DNA of 64,000 nucleotides from an uncultured Candidatus Saccharibacteria bacterium (GTDB lineage Bacteria; Patescibacteriota; Minisyncoccia; Phycocordibacterales; CAYGLL01): assembly GCA_964350935.1 (NCBI GenBank), contig CAYGLL010000004.1:9267-73266 (forward strand), in the 5' to 3' direction. Below the pieces are notes generated by a model. That model had not been told where the DNA came from, did not search any database, and saw only the letters and a program-made list of their open reading frames with translations. Positions 2,284 through 64,000 of the stretch are shown here, piece after piece; within the stretch, counting starts at the first letter, position 1, and every line of letters starts with the position of its first letter. The position numbers and the translations under genes are program-made.

Positions 2284-3345
2284 ATGAATTCGAATGCTGT
2301 GCTTATTATTGTGGCGCTTCTTGTTGCGGTGAACGCTTTTTTGATCTGGAAAATAACGCGGAAAGCAGGGCAAGAAGAAACAAAGGCTGATGATATAGGA
2401 CTCAAGCTTATTCTCGAGCAGATGAATCAGATTTCACGCACCGTCGATCAGAAATTGGGCGAAAACACCAAAGAAGTTTCAAACGCACTTCGCCACCAGT
2501 TTAGCGAGTCCGCAAAGCTTATTAAGGATGTTACAGAAGGTCTTACGAAACTTGATGAAACCAACAAACAGGTTGTTTCGTTTGCCGACCAGCTCCAGTC
2601 TCTTCAGGATGTTTTGAAAAATCCCAAACAGCGCGGAATACTTGGTGAGTATTATCTGGAAACGCTGCTTAAAAATGTGTTGCCTCCGGGAAGTTACAAG
2701 ATGCAGTATCCGTTCAACGACGGTACCATCGTCGATGCGGCAGTTTTTGTAAAAGATAAAGTAATCCCGATCGATTCGAAGTTTTCACTCGAAAACTATA
2801 ATCGCCTGGTTGAAGAAAAGGATCCGGTTGAACGCGAACGGCTCGAAAAAACATTTAAAACTGATCTCAAAAACAGAATTGACGAAACGGCAAAATATGT
2901 AAAACCTTCCGAGGGAACCATGGACTTTGCGTTTATGTTCATTCCGCACGAGGCCATTTACTATGATTTGCTGGTAGCACAGGTTGGTGCGGTTAAAGTA
3001 AACACCCGTGATTTGATTGATTACGCCTTTAAAGAGAAGCGCGTCATTATTGTTTCGCCGACCTCATTTCTCGCATATTTGCAGACTGTTCTTCAGGGAC
3101 TGAAAGCGCTTCAGATTGAAGAAAAGGCAAAAGATATTATTCGTCATGTGGAAGAGCTGGGGAGACATCTAAAAAGTTATGACGAATATCATAAGAAACT
3201 GGGTAACGCACTTTCCACTACCGTAAACCATTTCAATACGTCTAATAAAGAGTTTAAAAAAATTGATAAAGATGTAATGCGTATTGCCGGCGCGGCGCCG
3301 GGAATTGAAGCCCTCGTTATTTCTCGACCCGAAAGCGAAGAATAG
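2284..3345 (+). CDS. rmuC: DNA recombination protein RmuC
   Basis: N-terminal TM helix, long coiled coil, KQRGILGEYYLE and FMFIPHEAIYYDLL motifs typical of RmuC. Confidence 0.7.
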   Translation: MNSNAVLIIVALLVAVNAFLIWKITRKAGQEETKADDIGLKLILEQMNQISRTVDQKLGENTKEVSNALRHQFSESAKLIKDVTEGLTKLDETNKQVVSFADQLQSLQDVLKNPKQRGILGEYYLETLLKNVLPPGSYKMQYPFNDGTIVDAAVFVKDKVIPIDSKFSLENYNRLVEEKDPVERERLEKTFKTDLKNRIDETAKYVKPSEGTMDFAFMFIPHEAIYYDLLVAQVGAVKVNTRDLIDYAFKEKRVIIVSPTSFLAYLQTVLQGLKALQIEEKAKDIIRHVEELGRHLKSYDEYHKKLGNALSTTVNHFNTSNKEFKKIDKDVMRIAGAAPGIEALVISRPESEE

Positions 3346-3350
3346 ACTCT

Positions 3351-3905
3351 ATGTCGTATAACGGAGTTGAAATAATTGCTGAGGTTAAGACGCAGTCACC
3401 GTTTGGTTTTAAGTCTGAAAAAACATGGGACGAACTTTTTCATCTTGCCGAGAGGGTAGGCGACACCCTCTCAATTCATACTGATCCACGATGGGGCGGG
3501 TCATTTGAACTTGTTAAAAAAGCCCGAGGACGTACACAAAAACCAATTCTCGCGAAAGGAATTCATACTTCAGATGACGATATACAAAGAGCGCTCGATG
3601 CCGGAGCAGATTTTGTTTTAGTAGTAGGACGAATTCCCCAGGAGTATCCGGAAAAATGTATCATAGAGCCATATACACTGGCTGAACTAAAAAAGATTCC
3701 GGAGGAATTGAAAGCGTTGTGGAACGCTCGAGATCTTTCAACAGGAAAAGTTAAAGCGGAAACCTTTTCTACGGCACGGCAAGTGTTTAAAGGTTGGCTT
3801 TGTCAGGCTAGTTTTTTGAAGAGTGTGGATGATATTTTGCCTGGTGCACACGCGGTTTTGGTAGGTGAACATGTTCTTGAGTTTGCCCAATCGGCAGGCC
3901 TGTAG
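3351..3905 (+). CDS. short indole-3-glycerol-phosphate synthase-like TIM-barrel protein
   Basis: IIAEVKTQSPFGF (compare IAEVKKASPSKG) and KGIHTSDDDIQRALDAGADFVLVV resemble TrpC; only 184 aa, so truncated or divergent. Confidence 0.4.
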   Translation: MSYNGVEIIAEVKTQSPFGFKSEKTWDELFHLAERVGDTLSIHTDPRWGGSFELVKKARGRTQKPILAKGIHTSDDDIQRALDAGADFVLVVGRIPQEYPEKCIIEPYTLAELKKIPEELKALWNARDLSTGKVKAETFSTARQVFKGWLCQASFLKSVDDILPGAHAVLVGEHVLEFAQSAGL

Positions 3906-4038
3906 TTTGCCTTTTTTAATAGAGTATGTAGAATAGTAACCCTATCCCAGTCGAATCAAACCCCAGTAGAAATTTGAAGATGCAAGAGTGGGTGGTTTAC
4001 GGGAAATTGAATCATTTTTTCAACTAAAATCAATTACT

Positions 4039-6096: not shown

Positions 6097-7482
6097 TTAA
6101 AAATTATCTGCCTCCTGCTTGAAATTGCCGTAGGACGATTTGTCGATCGAGAGGAAGGTTGACTTGTCTGCGTCAAAGTGAAGTTCGATTTTTCCAGTAG
6201 GGCCATTGCGGTGTTTTTCGATAAGAATTTCAGCTAGTTCTTTTCGTCCACCACCGTCTTCGTTTTGCTCGCGATGAATAAACATAACCACGTCCGCGTC
6301 CTGTTCGATCGAGCCTGAATCGCGCAGGTCAGAAAGTCGGGGACGACCGCCACGTTGTTCAACGGCACGCGAAAGCTGTGAGAGAGCGAGGACCGGGACA
6401 TCAATCTCACGCGCAAGGTTTTTAAGTGATCGAGAAATTTCAGTTACTTGCTGGTAGAAGGAGTCGCTGCCGCTCTTCATGCCGCCGGTTGGTAGCATAA
6501 GCTGGAGATAATCTACAACAATAAGACCAAGTTTTTTGTCACTTTTAAGCCGGCGAGCAACTGAACGCATTTTGATAATGTTGTTTCCTGGCTGATCATC
6601 AATGTAAATGGGCGCGTTTGATAGACGGCCAAGCGAGTCACGGATTTTTGCAAATTCATCGTCAACCGAAAGCCGTCCGGTGCGCAGTTTCCACGCATCG
6701 ACGCGGCTTTCAGCCGCAAGCATACGATCCACCAATTGCTGAGAGCTCATTTCCAAAGAGAAGATGCCAACTGACACGCCGTGGTTCACGGCCGCCTGTC
6801 GAGCAATATCGAGAGCGAGTGAGGTTTTTCCCATTGAAGGACGTGCCGCTAAAATAATGAGATCAGATTTTTGAAGACCGGAAAGTTTGTTATCAAGCTC
6901 CTTGAAGCCTGTGGGAATACCACGCATCTCGTCCTTGGATTTCGAGAGCTTGTCGAGCCTTTCCCATGCCTCGGTCAATGCGTCTTTAAGCTCAATAAAT
7001 TTGTGCGTGCCTGAGTAGTTGGTTACTTTGAAGAGATGTTTTTCAGCATTGTCGAGAATTTCTTCAAGCTCAGCCGCCTCATCATAGCCGAGATTGTTGA
7101 TATGCTCTGAGGCATTGATGAGGGATCTCATCATGTACTTTTTGCGTACAATTTCTGCGTAGTGGCGAACATTTGAAGAGGAGGGAACAACGCTCACGAG
7201 TTCGGTGAGGTAGGCGCTGCCGCCAACCTGTTCGAGTTCGTTTTTTTCTTTGAGGCGGGACGAAACGGAGAGAAGATCGATAGGATTGGCTTTACTAAAA
7301 AGATCAAGAACGGTTCGCCATATGATGCGGTGTTTTTCCGCATAGAAAGAGTCAATGCTTATAACATCCATAACCTCGTGCATAGCATCACTTTGGAGCA
7401 TAACTGCGCCCAAGAGCGCCATCTCTGCCTCAAGGTTTTGTGGCGGAACTTTAAGATTCCTCGATGGTCTTTCATGTGCCAT
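6097..7482 (-). CDS. dnaB: replicative DNA helicase DnaB
   Basis: PQNLEAEMALLGAVM N-terminal motif; Walker A ARPSMGKTS; RecA-like C-terminal domain. Confidence 0.9.
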   Translation of the reverse strand: MAHERPSRNLKVPPQNLEAEMALLGAVMLQSDAMHEVMDVISIDSFYAEKHRIIWRTVLDLFSKANPIDLLSVSSRLKEKNELEQVGGSAYLTELVSVVPSSSNVRHYAEIVRKKYMMRSLINASEHINNLGYDEAAELEEILDNAEKHLFKVTNYSGTHKFIELKDALTEAWERLDKLSKSKDEMRGIPTGFKELDNKLSGLQKSDLIILAARPSMGKTSLALDIARQAAVNHGVSVGIFSLEMSSQQLVDRMLAAESRVDAWKLRTGRLSVDDEFAKIRDSLGRLSNAPIYIDDQPGNNIIKMRSVARRLKSDKKLGLIVVDYLQLMLPTGGMKSGSDSFYQQVTEISRSLKNLAREIDVPVLALSQLSRAVEQRGGRPRLSDLRDSGSIEQDADVVMFIHREQNEDGGGRKELAEILIEKHRNGPTGKIELHFDADKSTFLSIDKSSYGNFKQEADNF

Positions 7483-51058: not shown

Positions 51059-51943
51059 TTATATCAATTCAGTTGTTTCCGATCTATTTACTAGATACAC
51101 GCTTATTAAAACCAGTGCCCCTCCGATGAGTTCTCGAAGCAGTGGGGCTTCTTTAAAAAGAAAAACGGAATACAAAAGCGCGAATATTGTTTCCAGTGTA
51201 AGGATGTTTGCAGCCACAATTACTTTCAATCTCTGAAATCCATAATTGGTAAGGAAAAGATTGGCGACGTTAAAAATAGCTCCTGCAAAGAGCGCGAGCA
51301 ATATAAAAGGTGTAAATTGATCGAGCGTAGGGGTTGGTTCGCCTAGAACAAGCGAAGTGATAAAAAGGAAAATTGCTCCCGCAAAAAACATAAAGGTAGT
51401 ACTTTCTTTGTTGTTGAGGTAGTCACTGTGCCATTTACGTGCAATGTAACTAAAATCAAAGGCAAGCATTGAAAGTAGCGCCATAACTTCGCCGTACCCA
51501 ATCTTGAAAGTTGAAAAATTAACGAGAGAAATAAGGAGTACACCGACAAAACCAATACAGACATACAATACGGTCTTGGTTTTAAGTCGTTCCCCCAAAA
51601 GAAAATATCCCATGATAGGAAGTAGTGGCAATGCCGCGATGAACGATGCATTTCCGTACTTCGTGTTGAGTAGGGCCTCGGTAAACAAGGTAACTCCAAG
51701 GTAAAGTGTAATTGACCGAAATATCAAAACCCCAAGATCGTTTTTAGAAAGATTTTTATATTTACTCCAACTAATGTCTCTAGAGAAAACAACGCAGGCA
51801 AGAAGAAAAGCTAAACCAATTCTCAAATACGTCTGTTCAAATAGTTCGAAGCTTGTCGCAAGATACCTCGCAAAGATTCCCATTGTTGCGAAGACAAAGG
51901 CAAGTACTACTAGTGCGACTACCCCTTTTTTATTTTCAGACAT
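51059..51943 (-). CDS. EamA-family (DMT superfamily) transporter
   Basis: 10 predicted TM helices in two 5-TM repeats. Confidence 0.65.
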   Translation of the reverse strand: MSENKKGVVALVVLAFVFATMGIFARYLATSFELFEQTYLRIGLAFLLACVVFSRDISWSKYKNLSKNDLGVLIFRSITLYLGVTLFTEALLNTKYGNASFIAALPLLPIMGYFLLGERLKTKTVLYVCIGFVGVLLISLVNFSTFKIGYGEVMALLSMLAFDFSYIARKWHSDYLNNKESTTFMFFAGAIFLFITSLVLGEPTPTLDQFTPFILLALFAGAIFNVANLFLTNYGFQRLKVIVAANILTLETIFALLYSVFLFKEAPLLRELIGGALVLISVYLVNRSETTELI

Positions 51944-51945
51944 AA

Positions 51946-52281
51946 TTAGAAAATTGAATTTCCTAGCGGGACTTCGGTTTGTGGGGTGAGATAGATGGTT
52001 TCGTCTTTGTCGTTTTGGACGCCGAGAATAAGGACCTCGGACTTTTCCGGGCCCATTTGCTTGGTGCCAAGGTTAATGACACAAATGATCTGCTTTCCAA
52101 TGAGGTCTTCCTTTGCATAGTTTCGATACGCACCACAGGATACTTTTGTCCCGATCTCAGGGCCAAGATCAACGGTAATGCGATATGTTGGCTTTTTGGT
52201 CGCCGCATCCTCGACATTCACGATCTTCCCTACCCGAATATCGAGTGCGTCAAAGTTTTTAAATTCAGCAAGAGGTTTCAT
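51946..52281 (-). CDS. csaA: tRNA-binding protein (CsaA/Trbp111-like), copy 2
   Basis: roughly 90% aa identity to copy 1 (49889..50224); nucleotide identity roughly 85%. Confidence 0.7.
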   Translation of the reverse strand: MKPLAEFKNFDALDIRVGKIVNVEDAATKKPTYRITVDLGPEIGTKVSCGAYRNYAKEDLIGKQIICVINLGTKQMGPEKSEVLILGVQNDKDETIYLTPQTEVPLGNSIF

Positions 52282-52811
52282 TTATACTTATCTGGAATTT
52301 TAGCTTTTAAATATGGGGAGTAATATCGGCCATACTTCTGAAATATATCTGGTCGCTGCCAATCGCTTGGTGTAATGAGTTCTCGGCAAGCTCGTGATTT
52401 GCAATTGCATTTGAACGGATCGAAACATGTTTGACTAAATGCGTAATCCCAAGCAATTTCAACGTCAGGTTCTATATCTTCTATAGCAATGATTGTTATT
52501 GTGTCCCGGAATCCGGCGTTTGGATCGCACGCATGATTTATGGTTGCGGTGAGTTCAAGATCTTCTGGCGTTGGTGCCATTAAAAAATTTTCATCAATGT
52601 CGAGTGGTATATTGTCAACAACATAATCCATAAGTTTGTTGTATTTTTCAATGTCTGATTTCGGTACGACAACTCCACCGGTGACTCGAAGTATTTCCCC
52701 TTTTGAAATAAATTCCCTTGCAAAAAGACCCCTAGCACAAATACGAGATTTACGAACCTCAGTCTTAGGATTAAGCCATCTATGCTGCCAAATTTTGTGA
52801 AAATCCTCCAT
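52278..52811 (-). CDS. SET-domain protein (putative lysine methyltransferase) with post-SET Cys cluster
   Basis: ARGLFAREFISKGEIL (N-SET GxG region), INHACDPN (NHSCxPN signature), ..IEPDVEIAWDY (ELxxDY-like), post-SET CNCKSRAC. Confidence 0.7.
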   Translation of the reverse strand: MEDFHKIWQHRWLNPKTEVRKSRICARGLFAREFISKGEILRVTGGVVVPKSDIEKYNKLMDYVVDNIPLDIDENFLMAPTPEDLELTATINHACDPNAGFRDTITIIAIEDIEPDVEIAWDYAFSQTCFDPFKCNCKSRACRELITPSDWQRPDIFQKYGRYYSPYLKAKIPDKYK

Positions 52812-54283: not shown

Positions 54284-54808
54284 CTACTTTATCTTCTTCT
54301 CAAGTAAAAAGTCTAAGTGTCTTTGCAATTTCAGGTACCAAAGAATAAAACCAGTGACTGACAAAAACAGGCCCGCAATAGACATCATCTCATAAAGTTT
54401 TATTTGCCCCTTTGCCCGATTGAGTATATCAATGAAGTAATCGTGAGAAATTTTTTCTGAGTCGATTTCCCTCGCCAACCCAGAAAGACGGTCTGTTTCA
54501 GACGAGATGAGTTCAAACTGGTTCGCAAGTAATTCTTCAAATTTATACAAGTCTAACTCGCTATTGTTTTTATAGGCGTCAATTTTAAGTTGAGAGATCT
54601 TAATCATAGCTTCTGCCTGAGCACTTTTTATTTCAGAAGCAGCCATGCTTCTCGCAAGTTGCACGTGAGCAGTTTCTACTTCAAAATGCTTGGTGAGGAT
54701 TTTGTCCAGAAGTATTTGGGGAAGAACAACAGATAGGGTGATTAAGAACAGTCCAGTTATGGCAATAAACTTATATAAATTATCAGTAGGAATTTTCAGC
54801 GCATCCAT
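54284..54808 (-). CDS. hypothetical two-TM membrane protein with coiled coil
   Basis: ORF; TM helices near N and C termini. Confidence 0.35.
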   Translation of the reverse strand: MDALKIPTDNLYKFIAITGLFLITLSVVLPQILLDKILTKHFEVETAHVQLARSMAASEIKSAQAEAMIKISQLKIDAYKNNSELDLYKFEELLANQFELISSETDRLSGLAREIDSEKISHDYFIDILNRAKGQIKLYEMMSIAGLFLSVTGFILWYLKLQRHLDFLLEKKIK

Positions 54809-54820
54809 AATAGGCTCTGA

Positions 54821-55810
54821 CTAATACAACTTCGTGCCGAGGCGGGCGTGGACAAGGGTCATTTTCTTTTCGGCGATAGCGCGGGCTTTTTCGCCGCCAG
54901 CTTTGAGGACATCGAGAACCGCGGCGCGGTTGTGCTCGAGTTCACTGCGGCGGTTACGAAGTGGAGTTACGAATTTAATGAGATCGGCGATAAGAGCCTC
55001 TTTGAGGTCTTTGTACTTTCCTCGTTTGTTGACATAGAGTTTCTCAAGTTCAGCTTCGGGACGGAACAGTTTGTGTATCTCGTAGACGTTGGTCGGTGTG
55101 TCTCCAGATGAGTCGGTAACGATCGACATGACGAGTTTCTTTATCTCCTCGTCGGTCGCAAACAGTGGGATTGTATTTTTGTAGCTCTTGGACATCTTCT
55201 GGCCATCAATTCCCGGAACAGTCGCAACATCGGCGAAGATCATCGGCGCGGGCAGGCGGAATGTCTCACCAAAAATACGATTGAATTTTTCGGCCGTGTC
55301 GCGAGCAATCTCAATATGTTGTTTTTGATCTTGCCCCACCGGCACGACATCGGCGTCATACAGCAAAATATCCGCCGCCATGAGCATTGGGTAGTTGAAC
55401 GTGCCCACCGAAAGCTCTTTGTTCTTGGCTTCGGCGTCTTTGAAGGCGTGGGCGCGCATGAGGTATGGCATGGTCGTGATGCAGTCGAATATCCATGCAA
55501 GTTCGGCATGTGAGGCGATGTCGGATTGTTTGAAAATAGTGACCTTGTTCGGGTCGAGGCCGATAGCGAGGTAATCGAGAGCAACGCCCATGATCATCTC
55601 ACTCATCTCCTCTTTGTTCTGGACGCTCGTGAGGGCGTGGAGGTCGGCAATAAATATGTAGCAATCATACTTCTCTTGAAGTTCAACAAACTGCCTCATC
55701 GCGCCGAAATAATTGCCAATATGAGGCCTACCCGTGGGTTTGATCCCCGAGAGCATAGTCTTCTTAGACTCTGATTCCGATTTTATTGATTTGTCCGTTT
55801 TTGACGGCAT
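54821..55810 (-). CDS. trpS: tryptophanyl-tRNA synthetase
   Basis: HIGNY (HIGH) and KMSKS motifs; start placed at MPSKTDKS (55810) because the longer ORF would run through the upstream terminator hairpin; MLSGIKPTG at 55756 is an alternative start. Confidence 0.85.
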   Translation of the reverse strand: MPSKTDKSIKSESESKKTMLSGIKPTGRPHIGNYFGAMRQFVELQEKYDCYIFIADLHALTSVQNKEEMSEMIMGVALDYLAIGLDPNKVTIFKQSDIASHAELAWIFDCITTMPYLMRAHAFKDAEAKNKELSVGTFNYPMLMAADILLYDADVVPVGQDQKQHIEIARDTAEKFNRIFGETFRLPAPMIFADVATVPGIDGQKMSKSYKNTIPLFATDEEIKKLVMSIVTDSSGDTPTNVYEIHKLFRPEAELEKLYVNKRGKYKDLKEALIADLIKFVTPLRNRRSELEHNRAAVLDVLKAGGEKARAIAEKKMTLVHARLGTKLY

Positions 55811-55845
55811 GGCGAAATCGTAGCACAAAAGTGGCTTAGGATAAA
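55677..55845 (-). repeat. direct-repeat copy A: native trpS promoter region and first roughly 45 codons
   Basis: roughly 80-85% identical to 61630..61795 (for example ttgccaatatgagg..cccgtgggtttga..agcatagtcttcttagac..gatttgtccgtttttgacggcatg). Confidence 0.6.
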
Positions 55846-55851
55846 GATTTA

Positions 55852-55885
55852 AAAACACCCCTCGCATGTGCGAGGGGTGTTGTAG
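55852..55885 (-). terminator. Rho-independent terminator after C39-domain gene, immediately upstream of trpS
   Basis: acacccctcgca-tgtg-cgaggggtgt hairpin followed on minus strand by T-run. Confidence 0.6.
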
Positions 55886-55893
55886 TGAAGCAA

Positions 55894-57453
55894 TTACTTT
55901 TTCAGAAACCCTTTCGCTTCCCGCTCAAATTGCGGCAGCGATTTGAGTAGATTGGTGCGAGCGGACTGATTTTTTCGGATAGCGAGAAGCCACGATCCAA
56001 TCGGAGTGGAAGAGAATCTCCTCATCTGTCCAGATGACCAGTTTTCCTGCTTTCTTGAAAGCGGATCACACACCACGAAACCGTGCTGATTGTAACCTGA
56101 AACCACAACCGCATGAAGCATACCGCACATGCCGGCAAGAATGACTAGGTAGTCATCGTTCAAAAGTGAAGTAATGAGTTCGGGTGTAATCGGCACACCA
56201 TTTCTCACAACGGCACATGGACCACAATTATCAATGAAGCCTTGATACTCTGCCATGAGTGCCGAAAATGTTTCAGGATCAAGATAAGCGTTGCCATTTT
56301 GGAACATGCCGCTTTCGGAATGAATCAGTTGAGTTTCAAGTCCGTGGCAGTCAGCATACTTCTGTAATCCGGAGAAATGCGTTCCGGGTATGAGTTTTGC
56401 CGCACTTGCCTCGTAAATGGCATGTTCTGTTTTTACTGAAAGTTCCGTCAGTTCCAAGTGGTGGAGAATCATAGTGAGGCTCGCCGCACCACAGGTGTAT
56501 GGAGTTGACTGTCGGAATGGAGTTACATTTTTGACCATAAGTTCCTTTCTATAAACGTGAAGTTTTTCTAATCCTTCGGCCACCTGATTATCGTCAAGAG
56601 CGTAGATCGCTCCTGTGTTCAGAATAATCTTCGTGTCGTTAAGTAGGGTCAGAACAGCCCGTCTCAGGACATACCCTGAAATCCCTACCAATGTAGTAAG
56701 CATGGAGTACTCGTCGGTATTGTCATAGGTAATTGTCCTGGCAAGGGCTGAGACGTACGGGCGTTCCATCGCAAAGTAAAAGTGCTCGACACGTTTCGCG
56801 ACGCTCCCCCGTGTCTTACTGATTCGCTCTCGGATAACCTTGGGCGAACTATTTCTGAAGGCACTCAAATTTGCAAGTCGTCCTTCAAAAATGAGTTTGT
56901 CACCCGCATGGTATTTCTGCAGAAGGTCCTCAGTTTTTTTGCGTTTGCGCCCAGCAAGAAACAGTTCCAGGTGATCGGCCATGTAGGTCGCCCAAAAAGA
57001 AGGAGTTGGTGGCGTCAGAAGAAGTGTTGCCTCTGCGTCACTCAACATCATTTTTTGTTGCAGCCAGCTGGTCCAATACTCGATGTGCTTTTTGATCGCG
57101 GCTGTGGGAATAAGTGTCGCCTGGTCGATTAAGGATGCGACAGCATACATTTTGCCAAGTTCCACGACGCGCTCCTCGGTTAGATCAAATACGGTGCGGG
57201 GCAGAAGATCATTCAGCGCAGGTTCAAGGAGTTCTTCAAAGAAAACATTGTGCCAGTTCCACCGGTTGACGAGTTCTTCATAAAATGTCACCGGATCTTT
57301 GCGGGCCTGTTCTTCAACTAAGTTCCGAAGTAAGGGGTTTGATTGTGCAAAGTAGCGATTCGCGCCCAACAGTTCTTTGGTCAGAATCTCATCGATACTG
57401 CCCTTCCAACCATCAGGAATAAGTACGGATTTACGGTTTTTGGGTGTATTCAT
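55894..57453 (-). CDS. protein with C-terminal C39-like papain-fold cysteine peptidase domain and uncharacterised N-terminal domain
   Basis: C-terminal Q..TCGAASLTMIL (Gln oxyanion/Cys), H (LHAVVVSG) and D (VVCDP) spacing typical of C39 double-glycine leader peptidases; N-terminal 300 aa unassigned. Confidence 0.55.
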   Translation of the reverse strand: MNTPKNRKSVLIPDGWKGSIDEILTKELLGANRYFAQSNPLLRNLVEEQARKDPVTFYEELVNRWNWHNVFFEELLEPALNDLLPRTVFDLTEERVVELGKMYAVASLIDQATLIPTAAIKKHIEYWTSWLQQKMMLSDAEATLLLTPPTPSFWATYMADHLELFLAGRKRKKTEDLLQKYHAGDKLIFEGRLANLSAFRNSSPKVIRERISKTRGSVAKRVEHFYFAMERPYVSALARTITYDNTDEYSMLTTLVGISGYVLRRAVLTLLNDTKIILNTGAIYALDDNQVAEGLEKLHVYRKELMVKNVTPFRQSTPYTCGAASLTMILHHLELTELSVKTEHAIYEASAAKLIPGTHFSGLQKYADCHGLETQLIHSESGMFQNGNAYLDPETFSALMAEYQGFIDNCGPCAVVRNGVPITPELITSLLNDDYLVILAGMCGMLHAVVVSGYNQHGFVVCDPLSRKQENWSSGQMRRFSSTPIGSWLLAIRKNQSARTNLLKSLPQFEREAKGFLKK

Positions 57454-57498
57454 GTTGTAAAGACCTTTTAAATGAGACTACTCCACGCCATCATTAAG

Positions 57499-58167
57499 TC
57501 AATGCTTTTTGAGAAACGCGATAGTTTTTTCAAGTAGTTCATCTTCGTCTTTTTCTCCCATGAGGGAATGGGATGAATTATTAAGAGTGTACATAGTTGC
57601 ATTAGACAGGATTTCAGCCAGACTCATTGAATTTTGAAGCGGAACAACGGTGTCCTTGCTGCCGTGCAGAATGCAAATGGGAATGCGCAACGAAGTAGCC
57701 CACGTCCGGTTAATTTCTATATCAAGCACATTGCGAACATTTTTAAGCTCAACCGAGCTCAGTTTACTTACGGTTTCCTCGCCGGAGGTTACTCCAATCG
57801 CCGGAGCCCAGAGTGTTAAAGCGCGTATCAGTGGGTTACGGTATGAAATTAAAAGTGTCGCTCCAAAACTTTTTCCAATAGCAGTAAATTGCTTGAACCC
57901 TTGTTGAGAAAAATAATTGAGAATAGCGTCAAGCTCTTGATGATAATAGTTGATAGTTGAGCGCTCTAGTTCGGACTGATTCTGCCACATGTCTACTCGA
58001 GCAAGCGGCATTCCCTCACGGGTAAAATAAGATTCTAGCCGGGCATATTTGTCTGTAGTGGCCACGCCGCTGATTCCTGCTATAAAAAGCACTAAGTTTT
58101 TTGCTTGATCAGTCTTTATGTCGTTTAGGGCAACAAGACTATTACTTATTTTGATTATATTTTGCAT
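57499..58167 (-). CDS. alpha/beta-fold hydrolase
   Basis: GKSFG nucleophile elbow (GxSxG), ...HGSKD... His region. Confidence 0.55.
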   Translation of the reverse strand: MQNIIKISNSLVALNDIKTDQAKNLVLFIAGISGVATTDKYARLESYFTREGMPLARVDMWQNQSELERSTINYYHQELDAILNYFSQQGFKQFTAIGKSFGATLLISYRNPLIRALTLWAPAIGVTSGEETVSKLSSVELKNVRNVLDIEINRTWATSLRIPICILHGSKDTVVPLQNSMSLAEILSNATMYTLNNSSHSLMGEKDEDELLEKTIAFLKKH

Positions 58168-58171
58168 ATCT

Positions 58172-59422
58172 TTATGGAAAAGGATGAGGAAGTTTTTGAG
58201 ACCTAGGCTTAATTCCTCTTCGAAGCGCCTGCCCCAGCTTTGGTAGTATGTGCGATTTATTTAAATCAATCATTCGAGGTATGACAACACGAGCAATTGT
58301 GAACCCGCTGTCCTTAAGGTCTGTCGAAGTTATGTCTTTATAATAGACCTCAAATTTTTTTTCCGAAAGTTTATTAAAAAGCGAACGTTGAGACAAAGTG
58401 GTTGCTTTATAAGGAATTTTTTTTACAATCTTAGTCCGTAAAAGATCGAAATTTTCACCCTGATAAAAAAGAAAGTGCTCAAACAGCGCGGTAATATCTT
58501 TCGGCCTATCCTTCCTGTATTCTAACAAATCCATTGAATAGAAATAGGTAAAGAGGGCCTCTATAAGAGCCTTTTCAACTGCTCGGTTTGAATCAAGATG
58601 CGAACACGAACCTATTCCAAAATGGTAGCCCTTCTTTCTACTTTTTGTCCATACGTATGCGCCGAAAGTTGGAACAGATACTGCCGCAGGAAGTATGAAT
58701 AGTTCGAGATTATAGTATTTTTGTATTTTTTTAATGAATTTTTTAAGTTTGAGGGGGAGTGTCTCAGTATCCACACTATCAAGTTCGGTATCTGAATAGT
58801 GCCGCATCATTTGTGCATCACGCTCGATTATTTCTAACGTTCCACCGAGAATTGAGTCAGCCAGTTTTTTTCCAGCCGCGATCCCCGTTGAAGTTGTTTC
58901 TGCTATTTTTTCAAGGTGAAATGGCAAGTAGACAAGTGCCGCCGGCCAGTACAGTTCTTTTTTTCTCTGCGCAGACTTTATTTTTACCCAGTGAATTAGA
59001 TCTGTTGTGGCATTTTTAAAATGAACAGGAGTTGTTGTGGGTCCGTATATATTCAAATCAATTTTTGAAGGCGCACAAGATGAGTCAAGATCTTTATGTT
59101 TTGACAAAAGAAGTTCTGGGCGAGAATAGAAAGACATCGCGTATCGTTCAAGTGATTCTCCAATGCATGCGAATAGTGCTGATTTTTTATTGGACGCAAC
59201 ACCTAACCCGCCCGAAGAAAGTTCCTCGGTTTGATTACTGTTAAGTACGGTTATTTTTGCTGTTAGTGATTGAAAAGAGTTTAGGCCGAATCGGCTAAGC
59301 ATGTCTCGTTCCAGGATTGCGTTTATGTGTCCGGTAAACTTGCTGATCAAGGGTTCAAGCTGTTTTCGCTCTCTCTTTGTCAGAAACCTCAATTTTTTTG
59401 TTGAAGTGTGAATATTATTCAT
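58172..59422 (-). CDS. YcaO-domain protein
   Basis: ALFACIGESLERY and GTLEIIERDA ATP/Mg-binding signatures of YcaO cyclodehydratase-type domain; ATG at 59422 (MNNIH) gives ATGAATAA start/stop coupling with the upstream ORF. Confidence 0.65.
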   Translation of the reverse strand: MNNIHTSTKKLRFLTKRERKQLEPLISKFTGHINAILERDMLSRFGLNSFQSLTAKITVLNSNQTEELSSGGLGVASNKKSALFACIGESLERYAMSFYSRPELLLSKHKDLDSSCAPSKIDLNIYGPTTTPVHFKNATTDLIHWVKIKSAQRKKELYWPAALVYLPFHLEKIAETTSTGIAAGKKLADSILGGTLEIIERDAQMMRHYSDTELDSVDTETLPLKLKKFIKKIQKYYNLELFILPAAVSVPTFGAYVWTKSRKKGYHFGIGSCSHLDSNRAVEKALIEALFTYFYSMDLLEYRKDRPKDITALFEHFLFYQGENFDLLRTKIVKKIPYKATTLSQRSLFNKLSEKKFEVYYKDITSTDLKDSGFTIARVVIPRMIDLNKSHILPKLGQALRRGIKPRSQKLPHPFP

Positions 59423-59834
59423 ACACCGGTAGTGGGCGTATCGTGTGCAGTTTGATGAGTTTTCCGGTATTTCCAAGTTCGAGCATGTACCTTTTTCCAA
59501 AGACTTGGACAAATTTTTTCCTGAGAATTTTTTGAAGTACCTGTGACCTGTTCGGATTTATGAGTTTTATTTTTTTTGAGTCAATAAACGAAGATGAAGA
59601 AATGCGTTTAAGGATAAGTTCAAAATCTGCTAAATTTTTAAGCGTTGGCCCAACTAAGTAAGAATGCGAAAAACGTGCAATAAAGATCGCCGGGACCGTT
59701 TCAGCTCCAGCATCCTTACCCCTTTTTCCTAGCCGGACTTGTTCTTTTGCCATTTTTCTTAACACAACATCACCATTGTGTGGTGATGTTGTGTTCTGCT
59801 TAGGCGGTGCAGAGGAGGTCAAACTTTTTAGCAA
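59415..59834 (-). CDS. hypothetical basic protein, translationally coupled to ycaO-like gene
   Basis: ORF (TTG at 59834; first ATG about 59753); no family recognised; stop overlaps the YcaO start. Confidence 0.35.
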   Translation of the reverse strand: MLKSLTSSAPPKQNTTSPHNGDVVLRKMAKEQVRLGKRGKDAGAETVPAIFIARFSHSYLVGPTLKNLADFELILKRISSSSFIDSKKIKLINPNRSQVLQKILRKKFVQVFGKRYMLELGNTGKLIKLHTIRPLPVYE

Positions 59835-60018: not shown

Positions 60019-60552
60019 TTATCGGAAAAAAAATTTACTAATTAACTTCGGCAGATCCCCTTTTGCCCTATCACCTCCTTTTATCTTTTCCAAAAGTTCA
60101 CTGGGCAAAAGCCAGAAAAATTCAATAAAATCTCTTGTGTTGTAGCGCGGATCAGCATTCAAAGAAATCTCGTACACGTTCATAAAAGCAGACACACCGT
60201 GCTCGTGCGGTGTTAAGTGACCGAGCAATTTCCACGTTGTAGTTTCAGTGTCTACGTTTAGTTCTTCTGCCGTCTCGCGTTTAAATGCCTGGTCGTATGT
60301 TTCCCCGCTTTCTACGTGTCCACCCATACTCATATCAAGGCAGAGCGGAAATATTCGTTTGTCTACCGATCTGCGCGGAATCCACATTTTTCCTTCAGAG
60401 TTTACGACAAATGCGTTTACTACTCGGAAATTTGAAAGACCTTCGGCGTAAATTTCTTTTCGAGATTTTTTGCCAATCACCTTGTCATTTCGGTCCACAA
60501 GGTCGAGATATTCTTCTTGCACAGGTTGAATCTTGTTAGTTTCAGGTACCAT
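60019..60552 (-). CDS. Nudix hydrolase
   Basis: Nudix box GGHVESGETYDQAFKRETAEELNV (Gx5Ex7REuxEExGu). Confidence 0.75.
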   Translation of the reverse strand: MVPETNKIQPVQEEYLDLVDRNDKVIGKKSRKEIYAEGLSNFRVVNAFVVNSEGKMWIPRRSVDKRIFPLCLDMSMGGHVESGETYDQAFKRETAEELNVDTETTTWKLLGHLTPHEHGVSAFMNVYEISLNADPRYNTRDFIEFFWLLPSELLEKIKGGDRAKGDLPKLISKFFFR

Positions 60553-60692: not shown

Positions 60693-61037
60693 ATGAAAAC
60701 ACTCGAAATTAACGGAGAACTCTGGTTCTACCTCGGCGAGCCTTTTGCCGTACGGTGCGATGATCAATGTGGCCTGACCGCTGTCGGAAACATCAGGCGG
60801 GCCAAAGAAGGTAAGCCTCGCAAAGTTTGGATCCACAGTCTCGCGGATGCCTTTGCTTGCGCTGAAGAGTGGGCCGCTAATAACGACCACCTTTCGGGGT
60901 ATGTTTTGGACTTCGCCAATCGCACTGTTTACTACGACAACGATCGGGCACTCCGACAGTTGAAGAGGAAGATCTTCCCTCAACGTAACCTCGTCGGCTA
61001 CTTCACAACCTTTACCCAAAGGTCGTTCAAGAAGTAA
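60693..61037 (+). CDS. hypothetical protein (higher-GC segment)
   Basis: ORF; plus strand preferred because of strong downstream plus-strand terminator; no family recognised. Confidence 0.3.
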   Translation: MKTLEINGELWFYLGEPFAVRCDDQCGLTAVGNIRRAKEGKPRKVWIHSLADAFACAEEWAANNDHLSGYVLDFANRTVYYDNDRALRQLKRKIFPQRNLVGYFTTFTQRSFKK

Positions 61038-61070
61038 CCGAACAAAACACAGCCAACAGAAAGGTAATGG

Positions 61071-61490
61071 ATGAAAACAATTATGAAAGTCCCGCATCCT
61101 GCGGGCATCGCGATTAATAATCGCCCTCTCCTCGACGCCTTCATCGAGCTCTGTCTCAGGATCGATAACATGGGAACCCTCCGGGACGAGTTCAAAGGAA
61201 TCGATCAGATCGAAATCACCGGCGAGGAATCACAAAATTCCGAACCGGAGTGGGGTCAGGCGTTAGGCATCAGGTGCCATTTGAAGATCCCTGGGGTTGA
61301 ACCAGCGATTGGAAACGCGTTCCTCTCTGTCGGCACCTTCCTCTTTGTCACGAAGGGCCGAGCGCGTGCTTCTCATGCATGTGGGCCCACCATCGAAGGG
61401 CAAATCAAGGATGTTCTTGATCCCTTAGCCGCAAGCCTCGCCATGAGCTGTCTCGAGTTGGCTCAAAGGTTTGCACCCACAGCCACGTAG
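61071..61490 (+). CDS. hypothetical protein (higher-GC segment)
   Basis: ORF followed by strong terminator; no family recognised. Confidence 0.3.
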   Translation: MKTIMKVPHPAGIAINNRPLLDAFIELCLRIDNMGTLRDEFKGIDQIEITGEESQNSEPEWGQALGIRCHLKIPGVEPAIGNAFLSVGTFLFVTKGRARASHACGPTIEGQIKDVLDPLAASLAMSCLELAQRFAPTAT

Positions 61491-61796: not shown

Positions 61797-61830
61797 TTTA
61801 AAAAAAGAAAACTCCCAGGTGGGAGTTTTA
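61797..61830 (-). terminator. Rho-independent terminator downstream of tRNA-Trp
   Basis: aaaactcccacctgggagtttt hairpin followed on minus strand by ctttttttt. Confidence 0.7.
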
Positions 61831-61834
61831 GGGT

Positions 61835-61908
61835 TGGCAGGCACGGAAGGAATCGAACCCTCGGTAAGGATTTTGGAGATCCCTGGTTTACCACTAACCG
61901 ACGTGCCC
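61835..61908 (-). tRNA. tRNA-Trp (anticodon CCA)
   Basis: hand fold of GGGCACGTCGGTTAGTGGTAAACCAGGGATCTCCAAAATCCTTACCGAGGGTTCGATTCCTTCCGTGCCTGCCA: 7-bp acceptor stem (G1-U72 wobble), D-arm GGTT/AACC, anticodon loop CTCCAAA (U33, C34C35A36, A37), T-arm GAGGG-TTCGATT-CCTTC, discriminator G73, encoded CCA. Confidence 0.8.
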
Positions 61909-61945: not shown

Positions 61946-62731
61946 TTACTTCTTCGAGTCAAGTCCACCAGGCATTTTTCGTGCGGCAAAGCCGAAGATA
62001 GATTCGTAGTTTGTACTACCAAAGATTACGGGATAAAAGTCATACACTGCCCTGATTTCTATTTTGTCTGAGGTGCGGGCGAAAATCTCCCCAGTTTTGA
62101 TCTGCTTAAAATTTTGGACATGCGGTTCAAGATGAGCTCCCGCCGGTTTAGCGACACTTTCAAAAACTTCATAGTATTCTGTTTGAAACCCAAAAGGCTT
62201 CACCGGCGAGATTAAACCGTAGTATGAAAAAATAAACTCAACCCCCTCAGTTGTTTTAATCACTGTTTTGCTATGAGTGTCTTTTCCCATTTCAAAAGCA
62301 ATGCCGATGCGGGCGCATGAAATAAGCGCCCTGTCTGGTTTCATGTTCATAAAAAGTACATTGCGCGGGGAAAGTTTTTGAAGTAGCTCTTTCGTAGCCG
62401 GATCTAGTTTGGTAACAATAACAGTATCTTCGAGCCCGCTTTTGGTTGAGTGAATATCGATAACGACATCATAGGCTGAAACAACTCGCACGAGTTCGAA
62501 AGCGCGTTTCTCCTCATATGTTCCGTCCGCTTTTCCCGGAAAAACCCGATTTAAGTCCTGATCAATATAGCGCTTTCCCTCTTGGTAGGCGCGTTCATTG
62601 GCGATCTGTACATCTACAGAGTCCCCGATAAGTTTTGGGTATTTTTTTAAAATTTCATCCTTAACCCTAACACCCACAAGCTCATCACCATGAGTCAGGA
62701 TATTGAGAAGTATTTTGAGCGCCATTTTCAC
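61946..62731 (-). CDS. succinylglutamate desuccinylase/aspartoacylase (AstE/AspA) family zinc hydrolase
   Basis: hallmark motifs LTHGDELVG (HG.E) and DLNRVFPG near N-terminus; 261 aa. Confidence 0.6.
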   Translation of the reverse strand: MKMALKILLNILTHGDELVGVRVKDEILKKYPKLIGDSVDVQIANERAYQEGKRYIDQDLNRVFPGKADGTYEEKRAFELVRVVSAYDVVIDIHSTKSGLEDTVIVTKLDPATKELLQKLSPRNVLFMNMKPDRALISCARIGIAFEMGKDTHSKTVIKTTEGVEFIFSYYGLISPVKPFGFQTEYYEVFESVAKPAGAHLEPHVQNFKQIKTGEIFARTSDKIEIRAVYDFYPVIFGSTNYESIFGFAARKMPGGLDSKK

Positions 62732-62779
62732 ATCATAACAAAAAACGGAGGGAAAATTAATTCCCTCCGTCTGAAGCGC

Positions 62780-63562
62780 CTATGCGCAAAGATCACGGCA
62801 CAGCGTCGCCCATTCAACGATTTGATCAAGCGAATCCGTAGCTCCAAACATCCGAAACTCGATTGTCCCGTGGACTGAGATGCGAATAAGTGTCCAGCAT
62901 CGGCGCGGGTCATCCGAAAAAGAATGCACCACTGATCGATCATAGAACTGGCTGAGGTCCTCGATTTTGTTCGGCATGTACTGTGTTGCCATAACCCGGT
63001 AGAGAGCCATCCGTTGCCCAGATGAATTGTCTCCGAGTGCGATCAGGCGCTCCGTGTGCTTGATAGCACAGTTGTAAGCGTTAATCGCCGCCGACAAGTT
63101 GGACATACCAACGTGAATGTGCGTTGCTGCCACACGACAGGCTGCCGAAAGAACTTCGTGCGGCATGTTTTTGGTAATCACTTGGTATCGTCCCGTTGGG
63201 TCAGGATAGATATCAAGGGGCATCGACTCGGAGGCTATTTCCAGGTTTACACGTCGTGCACCGACAACATGGTCGGCCCAATCGAGGGTTCTTTCGCTGT
63301 CAGAAAGTTTCGCATGTAGCTCGCCTATTTGGCATGGACCGATTTTTGACTCTAGCTGACATGCTGAGAGCTCGTACCCGAAATTCGAGTAATCCTGCGC
63401 AAGTCTCCCGCTTTCACGAAGACAATCAAGATATTTTTCTGCAAGCGGAGCAACCGCACCCGTTTTCGGGTCAATCGTAAACTGTTCCCGCTCAACACCA
63501 ACGCATCCGATTTTTTCCTGATCGAATTTGAATCGTTCAAAGAACTTTTCTTTTTCTGTCAT
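62780..63562 (-). CDS. GCS2-family carboxylate-amine ligase (YbdK/glutamate-cysteine ligase family 2-like), short form
   Basis: GVEREQF, GYELSACQLE, THIHVG and IEFRMFGATD align with GCS2 conserved blocks; 260 aa is shorter than typical YbdK. Confidence 0.5.
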   Translation of the reverse strand: MTEKEKFFERFKFDQEKIGCVGVEREQFTIDPKTGAVAPLAEKYLDCLRESGRLAQDYSNFGYELSACQLESKIGPCQIGELHAKLSDSERTLDWADHVVGARRVNLEIASESMPLDIYPDPTGRYQVITKNMPHEVLSAACRVAATHIHVGMSNLSAAINAYNCAIKHTERLIALGDNSSGQRMALYRVMATQYMPNKIEDLSQFYDRSVVHSFSDDPRRCWTLIRISVHGTIEFRMFGATDSLDQIVEWATLCRDLCA

Positions 63563-63862
63563 AGTTCGCCTTTCAGAGTTCGAGTCCTCTTCTCATAAGA
63601 AAACCCGTCCACAGCGCGCGTAACTTTTGTTACCTACGCTAAGGACGGATTTACCGTGGTGCCACCTTGTTTCGAGGGAGTATTCACCCTTCGCACTTTG
63701 CTATCTTTATGTCCATTAAGGACCAACAATAGCTTTCCTGATAACGGAGGAATCCGGATTTCCACTCATGCAGAAACCCTCTTGTCGTCGGCCTGTAGGA
63801 CAGACGACTACCATGACCCAGCCCCTTGTCCCTTAAGACAAAGGATCACGATATAGAGCTTC
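63563..63862 (-). promoter_or_regulatory. candidate T-box riboswitch leader (Trp-specific?) with promoter and intrinsic terminator upstream of GCS2-like gene
   Basis: minus strand: TTGACA-17-TATGCT promoter (plus coordinates 63867-63895); T-box-like core AAGGUGGCACCACGG (plus 63654-63668) against consensus AGGGUGGNACCGCGG; UGGC bulge complementary to GCCA of adjacent tRNA-Trp; terminator CCGUCC...GGACGG then GUUUUCUU just before the ATG; possible specifier UGG-A about plus 63762. Confidence 0.4.
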
Positions 63863-64000
63863 CAAAAGCATAGTACTGATGTAAAAATGTGTCAACTTGA
63901 TATTGCATCTTTGCGTGGTAGTTTGAAAACTGAAAGAGTTCGTTGTAATTATGATAACAAACAAATCCGTACCGATAACTGACCCGGCAGTAATAGCTAG

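Follow-up and report, generated by a model that had tools for sequence, protein, structure and literature searches.

Why should a bacterium keep an enzyme that makes an amide beside one that breaks it, and which amide would this be? The question is raised by a stretch of 64,000 nucleotides (nt) of contig CAYGLL010000004.1 (assembly GCA_964350935.1), called the window below, in which the gene of an ATP-dependent carboxylate-amine ligase is followed on the minus strand by that of an AstE/AspA-family zinc amidohydrolase. A preliminary description of this DNA had placed both genes under a candidate riboswitch. The riboswitch is very probably a T-box that senses tryptophan (Trp) tRNA. The specifier of a T-box names the amino acid served by the downstream gene, and T-boxes are reliable guides to function; here the T-box, clearly of the Trp type, directs attention to a family of enzymes to which no role has been assigned and which in dozens of species is joined to the gene of tRNA-Trp and to trpS, the gene of tryptophanyl-tRNA synthetase (TrpRS). 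Our best explanation, put forward tentatively, is a T-box-gated cycle in which gamma-glutamyl-tryptophan (gamma-Glu-Trp) is made and broken, so that Trp is buffered.

The comparison was based on 80 species-level loci encoding the ligase, together with the contigs that carry the window's own gene and a gene 48% identical to it. Counts are given over 81 loci for neighbouring genes, over 82 non-redundant loci for the T-box core and over 84 ligases for Trp content, and the structure of Stems I and II was aligned over the 5' domains of 40 leaders. Neighbouring open reading frames (ORFs) were clustered and the clusters then annotated. The close homologues all come from metagenome-assembled genomes of Parcubacteria, Kaiserbacteria, Moranbacteria and Nomurabacteria type, and the genome that carries the window belongs to the Patescibacteria (Candidate Phyla Radiation, CPR). 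On its minus strand we found, in this order, a putative promoter, a leader of about 260 nt, the ligase gene, a hairpin, the hydrolase gene, tRNA-Trp and a terminator.

The leader upstream of the ligase

The leader and its promoter are made up of the following elements.

63867..63895, minus strand: putative sigma-70-like promoter for the transcript of leader and ligase, TTGACA, a 17-nt spacer and TATGCT (10 of 12 positions match the consensus)
63853..63598, minus strand: the whole predicted T-box leader
63809..63853, minus strand: truncated Stem I without a distal platform, in which a lower stem of 8 bp carries an upper hairpin, with five bulged nt (CUGGG) on the 3' side (covariation in the 40 leaders and minimum free energy fold)
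63818..63820, minus strand: specifier codon UGG (Trp), followed by the purine G63817 (leader alignment)
63735..63779, minus strand: Stem II, with the conserved loop region CUGC..AGUGG, and the Stem IIA/B pseudoknot, CCGG..UCCUCCGUUA..AGGAA (Rfam alignment and covariation)
63651..63694, minus strand: Stem III and the T-box core with the antiterminator, AAGG-UGGCACC-ACGG at 63668..63654 (Rfam RF00230)
63664..63661, minus strand: antiterminator bulge UGGC, the predicted partner of the tRNA 3' end G73-CCA
63598..63649, minus strand: intrinsic terminator of the leader, a hairpin of -25.9 kcal/mol with a U-run in the minimum free energy fold, its 5' arm overlapping the 3' strand of the antiterminator

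The Rfam model RF00230 matched positions 63797..63638 with 41.9 bits (E 6e-8), and posterior probabilities over the core and antiterminator were near 1. About 85 model positions of Stem I were deleted in this match; the upper hairpin has just 7-10 bp, and the distal platform of interdigitated T-loops is not present in the leader. The same model also matched the leader of the locus with the 48%-identical ligase (E 7.6e-6). The remaining architecture is that of RF00230: a specifier triplet in the loop on the 3' side of Stem I with a purine after it, Stem II, the IIA/B pseudoknot, Stem III, a 7-nt bulge whose UGGN would pair with the NCCA end of the tRNA, and an antiterminator and a terminator that exclude each other. 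A permissive Rfam scan of 56-64 kb returned the T-box and the tRNA only, and other riboswitch classes were ruled out.

The fold of the 5' domain is borne out by the alignment of leaders, where 93.4% of the pairs are standard as against 77% in shuffles and at most 57% when the pairing was slid by one to three columns. Compensatory changes were seen in 22 of the 29 pairs (lower stem, 7 of 8; upper stem, 5 of 7), and double changes affected all 6 pairs of Stem II and 4 of the 5 pairs of IIB. The window's leader contains the sole exact T-box core motif in the 64 kb. An exact copy of the core, GGTGGNACCRCG, precedes the ligase by 100-200 nt on the ligase strand in 43 of the 82 loci, and it is almost absent from other places in them; three further loci have it at a greater distance, separated from the ligase by a small ORF, six others have variants with one mismatch, and in all a T-box precedes the ligase in about 52 loci. 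A strong terminator overlaps the antiterminator in 39 of 41 leaders. We also considered trpS as the target of the T-box and rejected it: the leader is on the strand of the ligase, and cores are essentially absent upstream of trpS in these loci.

A small ORF between the T-box terminator and the ligase was noted in L010 (3365-3580), L024 (about 4640-4950), L027 (4633-4956) and L083 (about 3780-3950). In some loci it encodes a predicted membrane peptide, in L083 a zinc-ribbon-like one.

As for specificity, the Stem I bulge reads (A/G)(U/C)-UGG-G, with UGGG invariant in all 40 leaders. In the antiterminator UGGN, all 45 leaders have a pyrimidine (C or U) as N, and G73 is present in all 20 linked tRNA-Trp genes. 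That the bulge triplet is the specifier, and that cognate logic holds in these organisms, is indicated by T-boxes elsewhere in the set. Locus L073 has a second leader with the same scaffold (about 420-800) in which U-UCG-G stands in the same register, and it precedes a gene for a SerA-like phosphoglycerate dehydrogenase; three very compact T-boxes precede aspS (L030, about 6620-6960; L079, about 750-400, minus strand; L080, about 1330-1000, minus strand). T-boxes seem to be in regular use in the Patescibacteria. We found no literature on T-boxes in CPR, Patescibacteria or Parcubacteria.

Taken together, the leader is very probably a Trp-specific T-box that attenuates transcription through a short Stem I, Stem II and the IIA/B pseudoknot, as judged from pairing and conservation. 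With a UGG specifier and a UGGC bulge, uncharged tRNA-Trp should stabilise the antiterminator and the polymerase would read into the ligase, whose transcripts would accumulate. The candidate riboswitch of the preliminary description is therefore very probably a T-box; its predicted sensing of tRNA-Trp and the ties of the whole locus to Trp had not been foreseen.

The known short-Stem-I T-boxes of Actinobacteria are translational. The window's leader shares the missing distal platform with this actinobacterial ileS class but is coupled to a transcription terminator, and the combination of the two widens the structural range of T-boxes. T-boxes of the truncated class depend on Stem II and the IIA/B pseudoknot (PMC7583486). 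Uncharged tRNA-Trp and a UGG specifier also operate in the Trp T-box regulon of Firmicutes (trpS, the trp operon, TrpXYZ and the anti-TRAP gene rtpA), of which TrpX is reportedly an example. There the resemblance ends: the target here is a ligase, and trpS itself is not under T-box control at these loci. Unlike other members of RF00230, the T-box of the window precedes a gene that encodes neither an aminoacyl-tRNA synthetase nor a biosynthetic enzyme nor a transporter, and its host is a member of the Patescibacteria.

The ligase and its interchangeable partners

The genes downstream of the leader, and the one that diverges from it, are arranged as follows.

62780..63562, minus strand: ligase, 260 amino acids (aa), GCS2 fold, with the motif GhExE as G22-V-E24-R-E26 (hidden Markov models (HMMs), homologues and structure model)
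62743..62772, minus strand: hairpin like an intrinsic terminator, 12 bp with a T-run, between ligase and hydrolase
62732..62740, minus strand: extended -10-like element TGTTATGAT, 7 nt before the hydrolase ATG, without a Shine-Dalgarno sequence (read from the sequence)
61946..62725, minus strand: AstE/AspA-family zinc amidohydrolase, 259 aa, with zero Trp residues
61835..61908, minus strand: tRNA-Trp, anticodon CCA, with G73 and an encoded CCA end, the predicted ligand of the T-box (ARAGORN, Rfam)
61808..61829, minus strand: terminator after tRNA-Trp
63951..64000, plus strand: start of a divergent TrpRS paralogue, TrpRS-B (trpS), of 454 aa; the gene continues past the last position of the window and was read from the same contig extended (L001)

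Both co-oriented ORFs reported in the preliminary description are real and intact, and so is their alignment with a tRNA gene. The ligase had been called unusually short, which it is not: homologues of 250-290 aa exist by the hundreds, and 260 aa is a normal length among them. A profile search of 1.84 billion representative proteins yielded 163 clusters with a cut-off of E<=1e-30 and 607 with one of E<=1e-3, with few exceptions of 250-290 aa, and the AlphaFold model of the ligase has a mean confidence score (pLDDT) of 95. Because the homologues share this length and the model is of such quality, the ligase is not a truncated YbdK; it is a small, discrete and naturally short family confined to Patescibacteria. 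The idea that either protein might be a truncated pseudogene, which had been named as a ground for refuting the description, was dismissed, since both have the full length typical of their families, high-confidence models and their catalytic residues.

The ligase has the glutamine-synthetase (GS)-type ligase fold, and its best matches in sequence and fold are glutamate-cysteine ligases (GCLs), not PafA. The NCBIfam models for GCL and YbdK match it weakly (1.9e-14 to 1e-9), below their curated thresholds (NF010043, 53 bits against 409; TIGR02050, 40 against 176). The Pfam scan of the window ligase did not report GCS2, and it gave Amidoligase_2 (PF12224) at 21 bits against a cut-off of 22; among the homologues, some have a precomputed match to PF12224 and others to PF04107. 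Compared with the architecture of YbdK, of about 370 aa, the C-terminal 100 or so residues are absent. We asked, as the preliminary description had suggested, whether the catalytic residues are kept at this length, and they are: G22, E24, E26, E64, E71, H148, H150, E235 and R237 align with YbdK and are invariant in 24 diverse homologues, as are the motifs GhExE, ELSACQxE, THxHxG and ExR. The aromatic residues W223, W251, Y126, Y163 and Y188 are invariant as well. To our knowledge, every characterised enzyme of this fold activates the gamma-carboxylate of glutamate by forming an acyl-phosphate, from which the acyl group goes to an amine. GhExE is the signature of carboxylate-amine ligases (PMC2588565). 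By fold and motifs, the protein is probably an ATP-dependent carboxylate-amine ligase, and gamma-glutamyl amides are, more likely than not, its products.

Iyer, Burroughs and Aravind (2008) described an uncharacterised family of GCS2-sized ligases encoded beside AIG2 cyclotransferases or GAT-like thiol peptidases, and guessed that it synthesises peptide metabolites. This family is probably Pfam Amidoligase_2. The window ligase resembles YbdK and the family of Iyer et al. in GhExE, in the metal and ATP motifs and in neighbourhoods with AIG2/GGACT or class-II GAT-like hydrolases. It differs in being about 110 residues shorter than YbdK, in forming a small family of its own and in having AstE/AspA as its main partner; control by a Trp T-box and linkage to trpS and tRNA-Trp are undescribed for those families.

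For the hydrolase, ATG 62725 is most likely the start rather than GTG 62731, and reading from this ATG gives a protein of 259 aa with exactly the sequence of P0121 in the database. Its score on Pfam AstE_AspA_cat is 69 bits, above the threshold, and its fold agrees. Residues H12, E15, H92, E145, R52, N59 and R60 are invariant or nearly so and align with H21, E24, H116, E178, R63, N70 and R71 of aspartoacylase (ASPA). The His-Glu-His zinc ligands, the catalytic Glu and the Arg/Asn/Arg that binds the carboxylate are thus kept, as in ASPA, aminoacylase-3, AstE, DoeB and CphZ, all of which have these zinc ligands and equivalents of Arg63, Asn70, Arg71 and Glu178. The assignment of the two proteins to GCS2-like ligases and AstE/AspA hydrolases in the preliminary description is in this way upheld by HMMs, motifs and fold. 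It was further found that the position of ASPA Arg168, which we take to bind the side-chain carboxylate of aspartate in the substrate, is a nearly invariant Ile in the hydrolase family. This suggests a pocket for a non-polar side chain, and hence a non-polar amino-acid moiety in the substrate. With Arg168 absent, with the equivalent of Tyr164 variable and with scores well under those of the specific aspartoacylase and desuccinylase models (NF002601, 75 bits against 180; TIGR03242, 28 against 306), the hydrolase does not look like an enzyme for acidic side chains. It also differs from the ASPA group in size (259 aa against 300-350) and in being virtually free of Trp.

The ligase and the AstE/AspA hydrolase are linked in other genomes too, as the preliminary description required, and non-homologous amidohydrolases take the place of the latter in most of the other loci. 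An AstE/AspA hydrolase is the partner in 48 of the 81 loci (directly downstream and on the same strand in 44), and a GGACT/AIG2 protein of about 150 aa, similar to gamma-glutamyl-cyclotransferases, in 12, directly downstream and on the same strand (for example L013, 4987-5472). A GATase_4 N-terminal nucleophile (Ntn) hydrolase, with EgtC as its best NCBIfam match (3e-14), lies downstream in 2-3 loci, and a PepT-like M20 peptidase is found in 9, mostly upstream. In a neighbour-joining tree the M20-linked ligases form a separate clade without T-box, trpS or tRNA-Trp, whereas all other partner types are interspersed in a Trp-linked main clade that includes the window's gene. The M20-linked clade probably has a different substrate. 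In its loci (L025, L028, L035, L045, L049, L054, L055 and L057) the PepT-like M20 peptidase precedes the ligase, and in three of them (L045, L055 and L057) the ligase is duplicated in tandem.

Among the alternative partner families, two cleave gamma-glutamyl amides specifically. Given this swapping of partners and a fold shared with glutamate-activating enzymes, the simplest reading is that the ligase would make a gamma-glutamyl amide and the partner would take the gamma-glutamyl group off again. It seems likely that ligase and amidohydrolase form a functional pair that acts on one and the same amide. The pairing of a bond-making and a bond-breaking enzyme in the preliminary description accordingly survives; its suggestion of trimming at peptide C-termini does not, as nothing supports this over a small-molecule gamma-glutamyl amide.

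Gamma-glutamyl groups are added and removed by several known pairs, EgtA/EgtC of ergothioneine, BtrJ/BtrG of butirosin and PuuA/PuuD of putrescine metabolism, in which BtrJ is an ATP-grasp enzyme and PuuA a GS-type enzyme. In these pathways, too, an ATP-dependent ligase is combined with an Ntn amidohydrolase or a cyclotransferase that removes the gamma-glutamyl group. Other enzymes act between the two steps there, whereas the core here consists of two genes and has another regulator. In two loci an ABC exporter with transmembrane and ATPase domains replaces the hydrolase directly downstream of the ligase (L035, 5832-7667; L078, 671-2506), and ABC exporters are found within 4 kb of the ligase in 12 loci.

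The same partner families bear on the possibility that the pair tags proteins or peptides. Under Trp starvation the ligase would then attach Glu, or a peptide ending in Glu, to lysines or termini for degradation, as is done by PafA, an enzyme of the same fold, and the partner would clear gamma-glutamyl isopeptides or remove the tag, as Dop does. The GGACT family is known to act on gamma-glutamyl-epsilon-lysine, and a ligase lacking the C-terminal domain of YbdK may have a more open active site. However, the loci have no conserved small ORF like Pup, the ligase does not have an architecture like that of PafA, the nearest structural matches are GCLs, and the partner families are composed of small-molecule or dipeptide enzymes. 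Iyer et al. also argued against protein conjugation for their analogous family. We consider tagging very unlikely.

Linkage to tryptophan genes and transcription of the pair

The tRNA-Trp(CCA) gene (61908..61835) begins 37 nt downstream of the hydrolase on the same strand, about 1.7 kb downstream of the leader. Across the loci, 44 tRNA genes were found no further than 5 kb from the ligase, and 20 of these are tRNA-Trp; trpS lies within the same distance in 38 loci. Both genes are enriched roughly 30- to 50-fold over the expectation for genomes of about 1 Mb. Some class-Ib synthetase matches were of low identity and could have been tyrosyl-tRNA synthetases; this was ruled out, as their sequences and HMM matches are TrpRS-like.

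Two further readings concern this linkage. According to one, the ligase is an ordinary gamma-Glu-Cys (or other gamma-Glu-X) synthetase and its Trp context is a coincidence, as its resemblance to GCLs might suggest. It is hard to reconcile this with a UGG that is invariant in all leaders, with the enrichment of trpS and tRNA-Trp, with the cognate T-boxes of the same genomes (Ser for serA, Asp for aspS) or with so tiny and discrete a family, and we regard it as highly unlikely. According to the other, the enzyme acts on tRNA-Trp or on aminoacyl-tRNA, as GatB/GatE act on Glu-tRNA, a precedent from the superfamily (PMC2588565) that would suit its tight linkage to tRNA-Trp, TrpRS and a sensor of tRNA-Trp. 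But a protein of 260 aa has no RNA-binding domain, its partners come from four families of small-molecule amidohydrolases, and no chemically plausible reaction with Trp-tRNA is apparent; this reading is extremely unlikely.

The window genome has two TrpRS paralogues, the second of which (55867..54821, minus strand, 348 aa) is 37% identical to the one adjacent to the ligase. The latter, TrpRS-B (63951, plus strand, continuing in L001 at 4003..2639), has an N-terminal extension of about 120 residues with a Cys-rich stretch, a long form also seen in L005, L006 and L064, and its ATG follows immediately after a -10-like TGTAATTAT, so that the mRNA looks leaderless. The second paralogue stands in a same-strand run (54284..59512, minus strand) that holds a YcaO/SagD-like cyclodehydratase (59512..58172), an alpha/beta hydrolase (58167..57499), a protein of 519 aa with a C39-like peptidase domain (57453..55894), TrpRS itself and an ORF of 174 aa without a family. 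An aminoacyl-tRNA synthetase within a cluster of this kind, resembling those for ribosomally synthesised and post-translationally modified peptides, is unusual.

Other genes recur in the neighbourhood. A fusion of about 380 aa of a chorismate-mutase-type-II domain (CM_2) with a class-I S-adenosylmethionine-dependent methyltransferase, here CM-MT, lies by trpS in 20 of the 81 loci (for example L004, 7745-9049, and L011, 2754-3920), often in the order TrpRS, CM-MT, T-box, ligase. One would not expect it in organisms that are believed to have no shikimate pathway. A family of 337-361 aa, c17, is encoded directly upstream of the T-box and ligase in four loci (L029, 3630-4643; L058, 218-1303; L071, 2065-3084; L072, 3490-4509). 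Its motifs are reminiscent of heme Trp dioxygenases, and one member has a weak IDO match (PF01231, E 9e-4); PDB sequence and NCBIfam searches gave no match. Similarly, a family of about 320 aa, c8, directly follows the hydrolase in six loci (L012, 6897-7853; L022, 6653-7624; L029, 6857-7837; L058, 3468-4469; L059, 6930-7940; L066, 6898-7860). It has no family match, its PDB sequence search was empty, and there was only a faint hint of a methyltransferase (E 0.09).

From these neighbours a longer pathway could be constructed, in which the amino group of Trp or a derivative is protected by gamma-glutamylation, the conjugate is modified by CM-MT, c8 and c17, and the glutamyl group is then removed by the hydrolase or cyclotransferase, as with EgtA/EgtC and BtrJ/BtrG in their pathways. 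This would yield a metabolite or cofactor derived from Trp, with TrpRS, linked or present twice, there for supply or for self-resistance. Recurrent gene orders (TrpRS, CM-MT, T-box and ligase, AstE; or ligase, AstE, c8, TrpRS) speak for it, as do the frequency of the CM_2 fusion, the IDO match of c17, the EgtC-like partner type and the two TrpRS paralogues of several loci, the window genome included. On the other hand, none of the extra genes stands beside the pair in the window, CM-MT tracks trpS and not the ligase, and c8 and c17 are confined to six and four loci. Induction by Trp starvation would be odd for a pathway that consumes Trp, and the tiny genomes of Patescibacteria rarely carry secondary metabolism. 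We consider such a pathway fairly unlikely.

The duplicated TrpRS and the ABC exporters near the ligase (in 12 loci, directly downstream in two) would also suit a defence. An antimetabolite acting on TrpRS would raise uncharged tRNA-Trp, the ligase would block the alpha-amino group of the Trp analogue by gamma-glutamylation, a Trp-specific hydrolase would rescue Trp that had been glutamylated by mistake, and the system would be rounded off by an exporter or by another TrpRS that is resistant. The T-box would supply the right input signal, and there would be a rationale for having ligase and hydrolase together. This case is entirely circumstantial, however; no candidate toxin is known, the linkage to exporters is weak and TrpRS is duplicated in a minority of loci, and we think detoxification or proofreading unlikely.

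At the junction of ligase and partner, a terminator-like hairpin stands between the two genes in 28 of 57 loci, including the window. The partner genes almost never have a Shine-Dalgarno sequence, and in many of them a -10-like element precedes the ATG by 4-25 nt. We infer that hydrolase and tRNA-Trp have a separate promoter and are expressed from a leaderless or near-leaderless mRNA. With a terminator and an apparent separate promoter between the genes, only the ligase is demonstrably under the T-box. The two-gene unit under the riboswitch, as given in the preliminary description, is right in part; with a hairpin between them in about half of the loci, the two genes do not form a simple bicistronic unit.

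The Trp content of the proteins differs in a characteristic way. Trp makes up 0.20% of the residues in AstE partners (31 of 48 without any Trp), 0.31% in GGACT partners (7 of 12) and 0.32% in TrpRS (15 of 43), against a background of 1.1% in all ORFs of the loci. In the ligase it amounts to 1.5%, with a median of 4 per protein, and none of the 84 ligases is without Trp. Avoidance of Trp is typical of proteins needed when Trp is scarce, and its occurrence in two non-homologous partner families fits a Trp-releasing role.

A possible tryptophan cycle and the surrounding genes

Regulation and gene neighbourhood make it quite possible, short of probable, that Trp is the amine substrate of the ligase. 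In the cycle that we propose, the amine would be L-tryptophan or a very close analogue, the product gamma-Glu-Trp, and the hydrolase would release free Trp from it. Being separately transcribed and almost free of Trp, the hydrolase could be made even in a complete Trp famine. The ligase, with its normal Trp content, would need Trp for its own translation and would then capture returning Trp in a protected, non-leaking gamma-glutamyl pool, so that the whole could act as a capture-and-release buffer for a Trp-auxotrophic episymbiont. This buffer physiology is conjectural and we would call it improbable as it stands; that a gamma-glutamylation cycle gated by tRNA-Trp, and reversed by independently transcribed Trp-free amidohydrolases, is a dedicated device for Trp homeostasis is a little less doubtful.

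Several observations weigh against the proposed cycle. The RF00230 score of the leader lies under the gathering threshold of 93, and about 30% of the main-clade loci have no recognisable T-box. The ligase is far below the GCS2 thresholds and lacks the C-terminal part of YbdK, so that its gamma-glutamyl chemistry is extrapolated from fold and motifs; it is itself not depleted in Trp, and its M20-linked clade has no link to Trp at all. The putative separate promoter and leaderless mRNA of the hydrolase are read from AT-rich intergenic sequence. In some loci, the methyltransferase and IDO-like genes nearby suggest that the pathway may be longer. It is also counter-intuitive that Trp starvation should induce an enzyme that consumes Trp, since canonical T-box logic raises the supply of charged tRNA, and at steady state a ligase/hydrolase cycle would be futile and could not raise free Trp; temporal buffering or channelling would be needed. 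Metabolic trapping that raises free Trp at steady state was accordingly ruled out by mass balance, as the two activities cancel out.

Searches for literature on a T-box with a carboxylate-amine ligase and on bacterial gamma-Glu-Trp synthetases returned nothing relevant, and as far as the literature found goes, the Trp connection of the ligase family is new. The parts are of known kinds (a T-box, a GCS2-fold ligase and an AstE/AspA hydrolase); their combination, the compact transcriptional T-box and its unexplained target are new. Patescibacteria are thought to depend on their hosts for amino acids, and with one RNA and two enzymes of about 260 aa the locus is a small testable system that bears on shortage of Trp. 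With gamma-Glu-Trp as the product, no earlier dedicated gamma-glutamyl-amino-acid cycle would have been coupled to the charging status of a tRNA. Were the cycle, with Trp or a Trp-related amine, indeed a device for Trp homeostasis, T-boxes would have gained a target of a new class, and organisms unable to make their scarcest amino acid would be seen to handle it in a new way. Depending on its effect, the conjugate could then serve for storage or as a trap, signal starvation or act as a decoy for TrpRS poisons.

We also looked at base composition, as the preliminary description had given the pair a higher GC than its surroundings. The ligase gene has a GC of about 0.51 and the 62-64 kb block 0.46, within the range of 0.39-0.50 for the blocks of the window, others of which also reach 0.50. 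The difference carries no weight, and a horizontally acquired GC-rich island was ruled out because GC is ordinary at the scale of the window.

Beyond the terminator of tRNA-Trp, two ORFs of 114 and 139 aa (60693..61490, plus strand, GC about 0.52, without a family match) converge on it; they are called genes on the public contig too. The next gene (60019..60552, minus strand) encodes a NUDIX hydrolase similar to YfcD and IPP-isomerase. Further away (51059..52811, minus strand), an EamA-family transporter of the carboxylate/amino acid/amine type adjoins a bacterial SET-domain protein.

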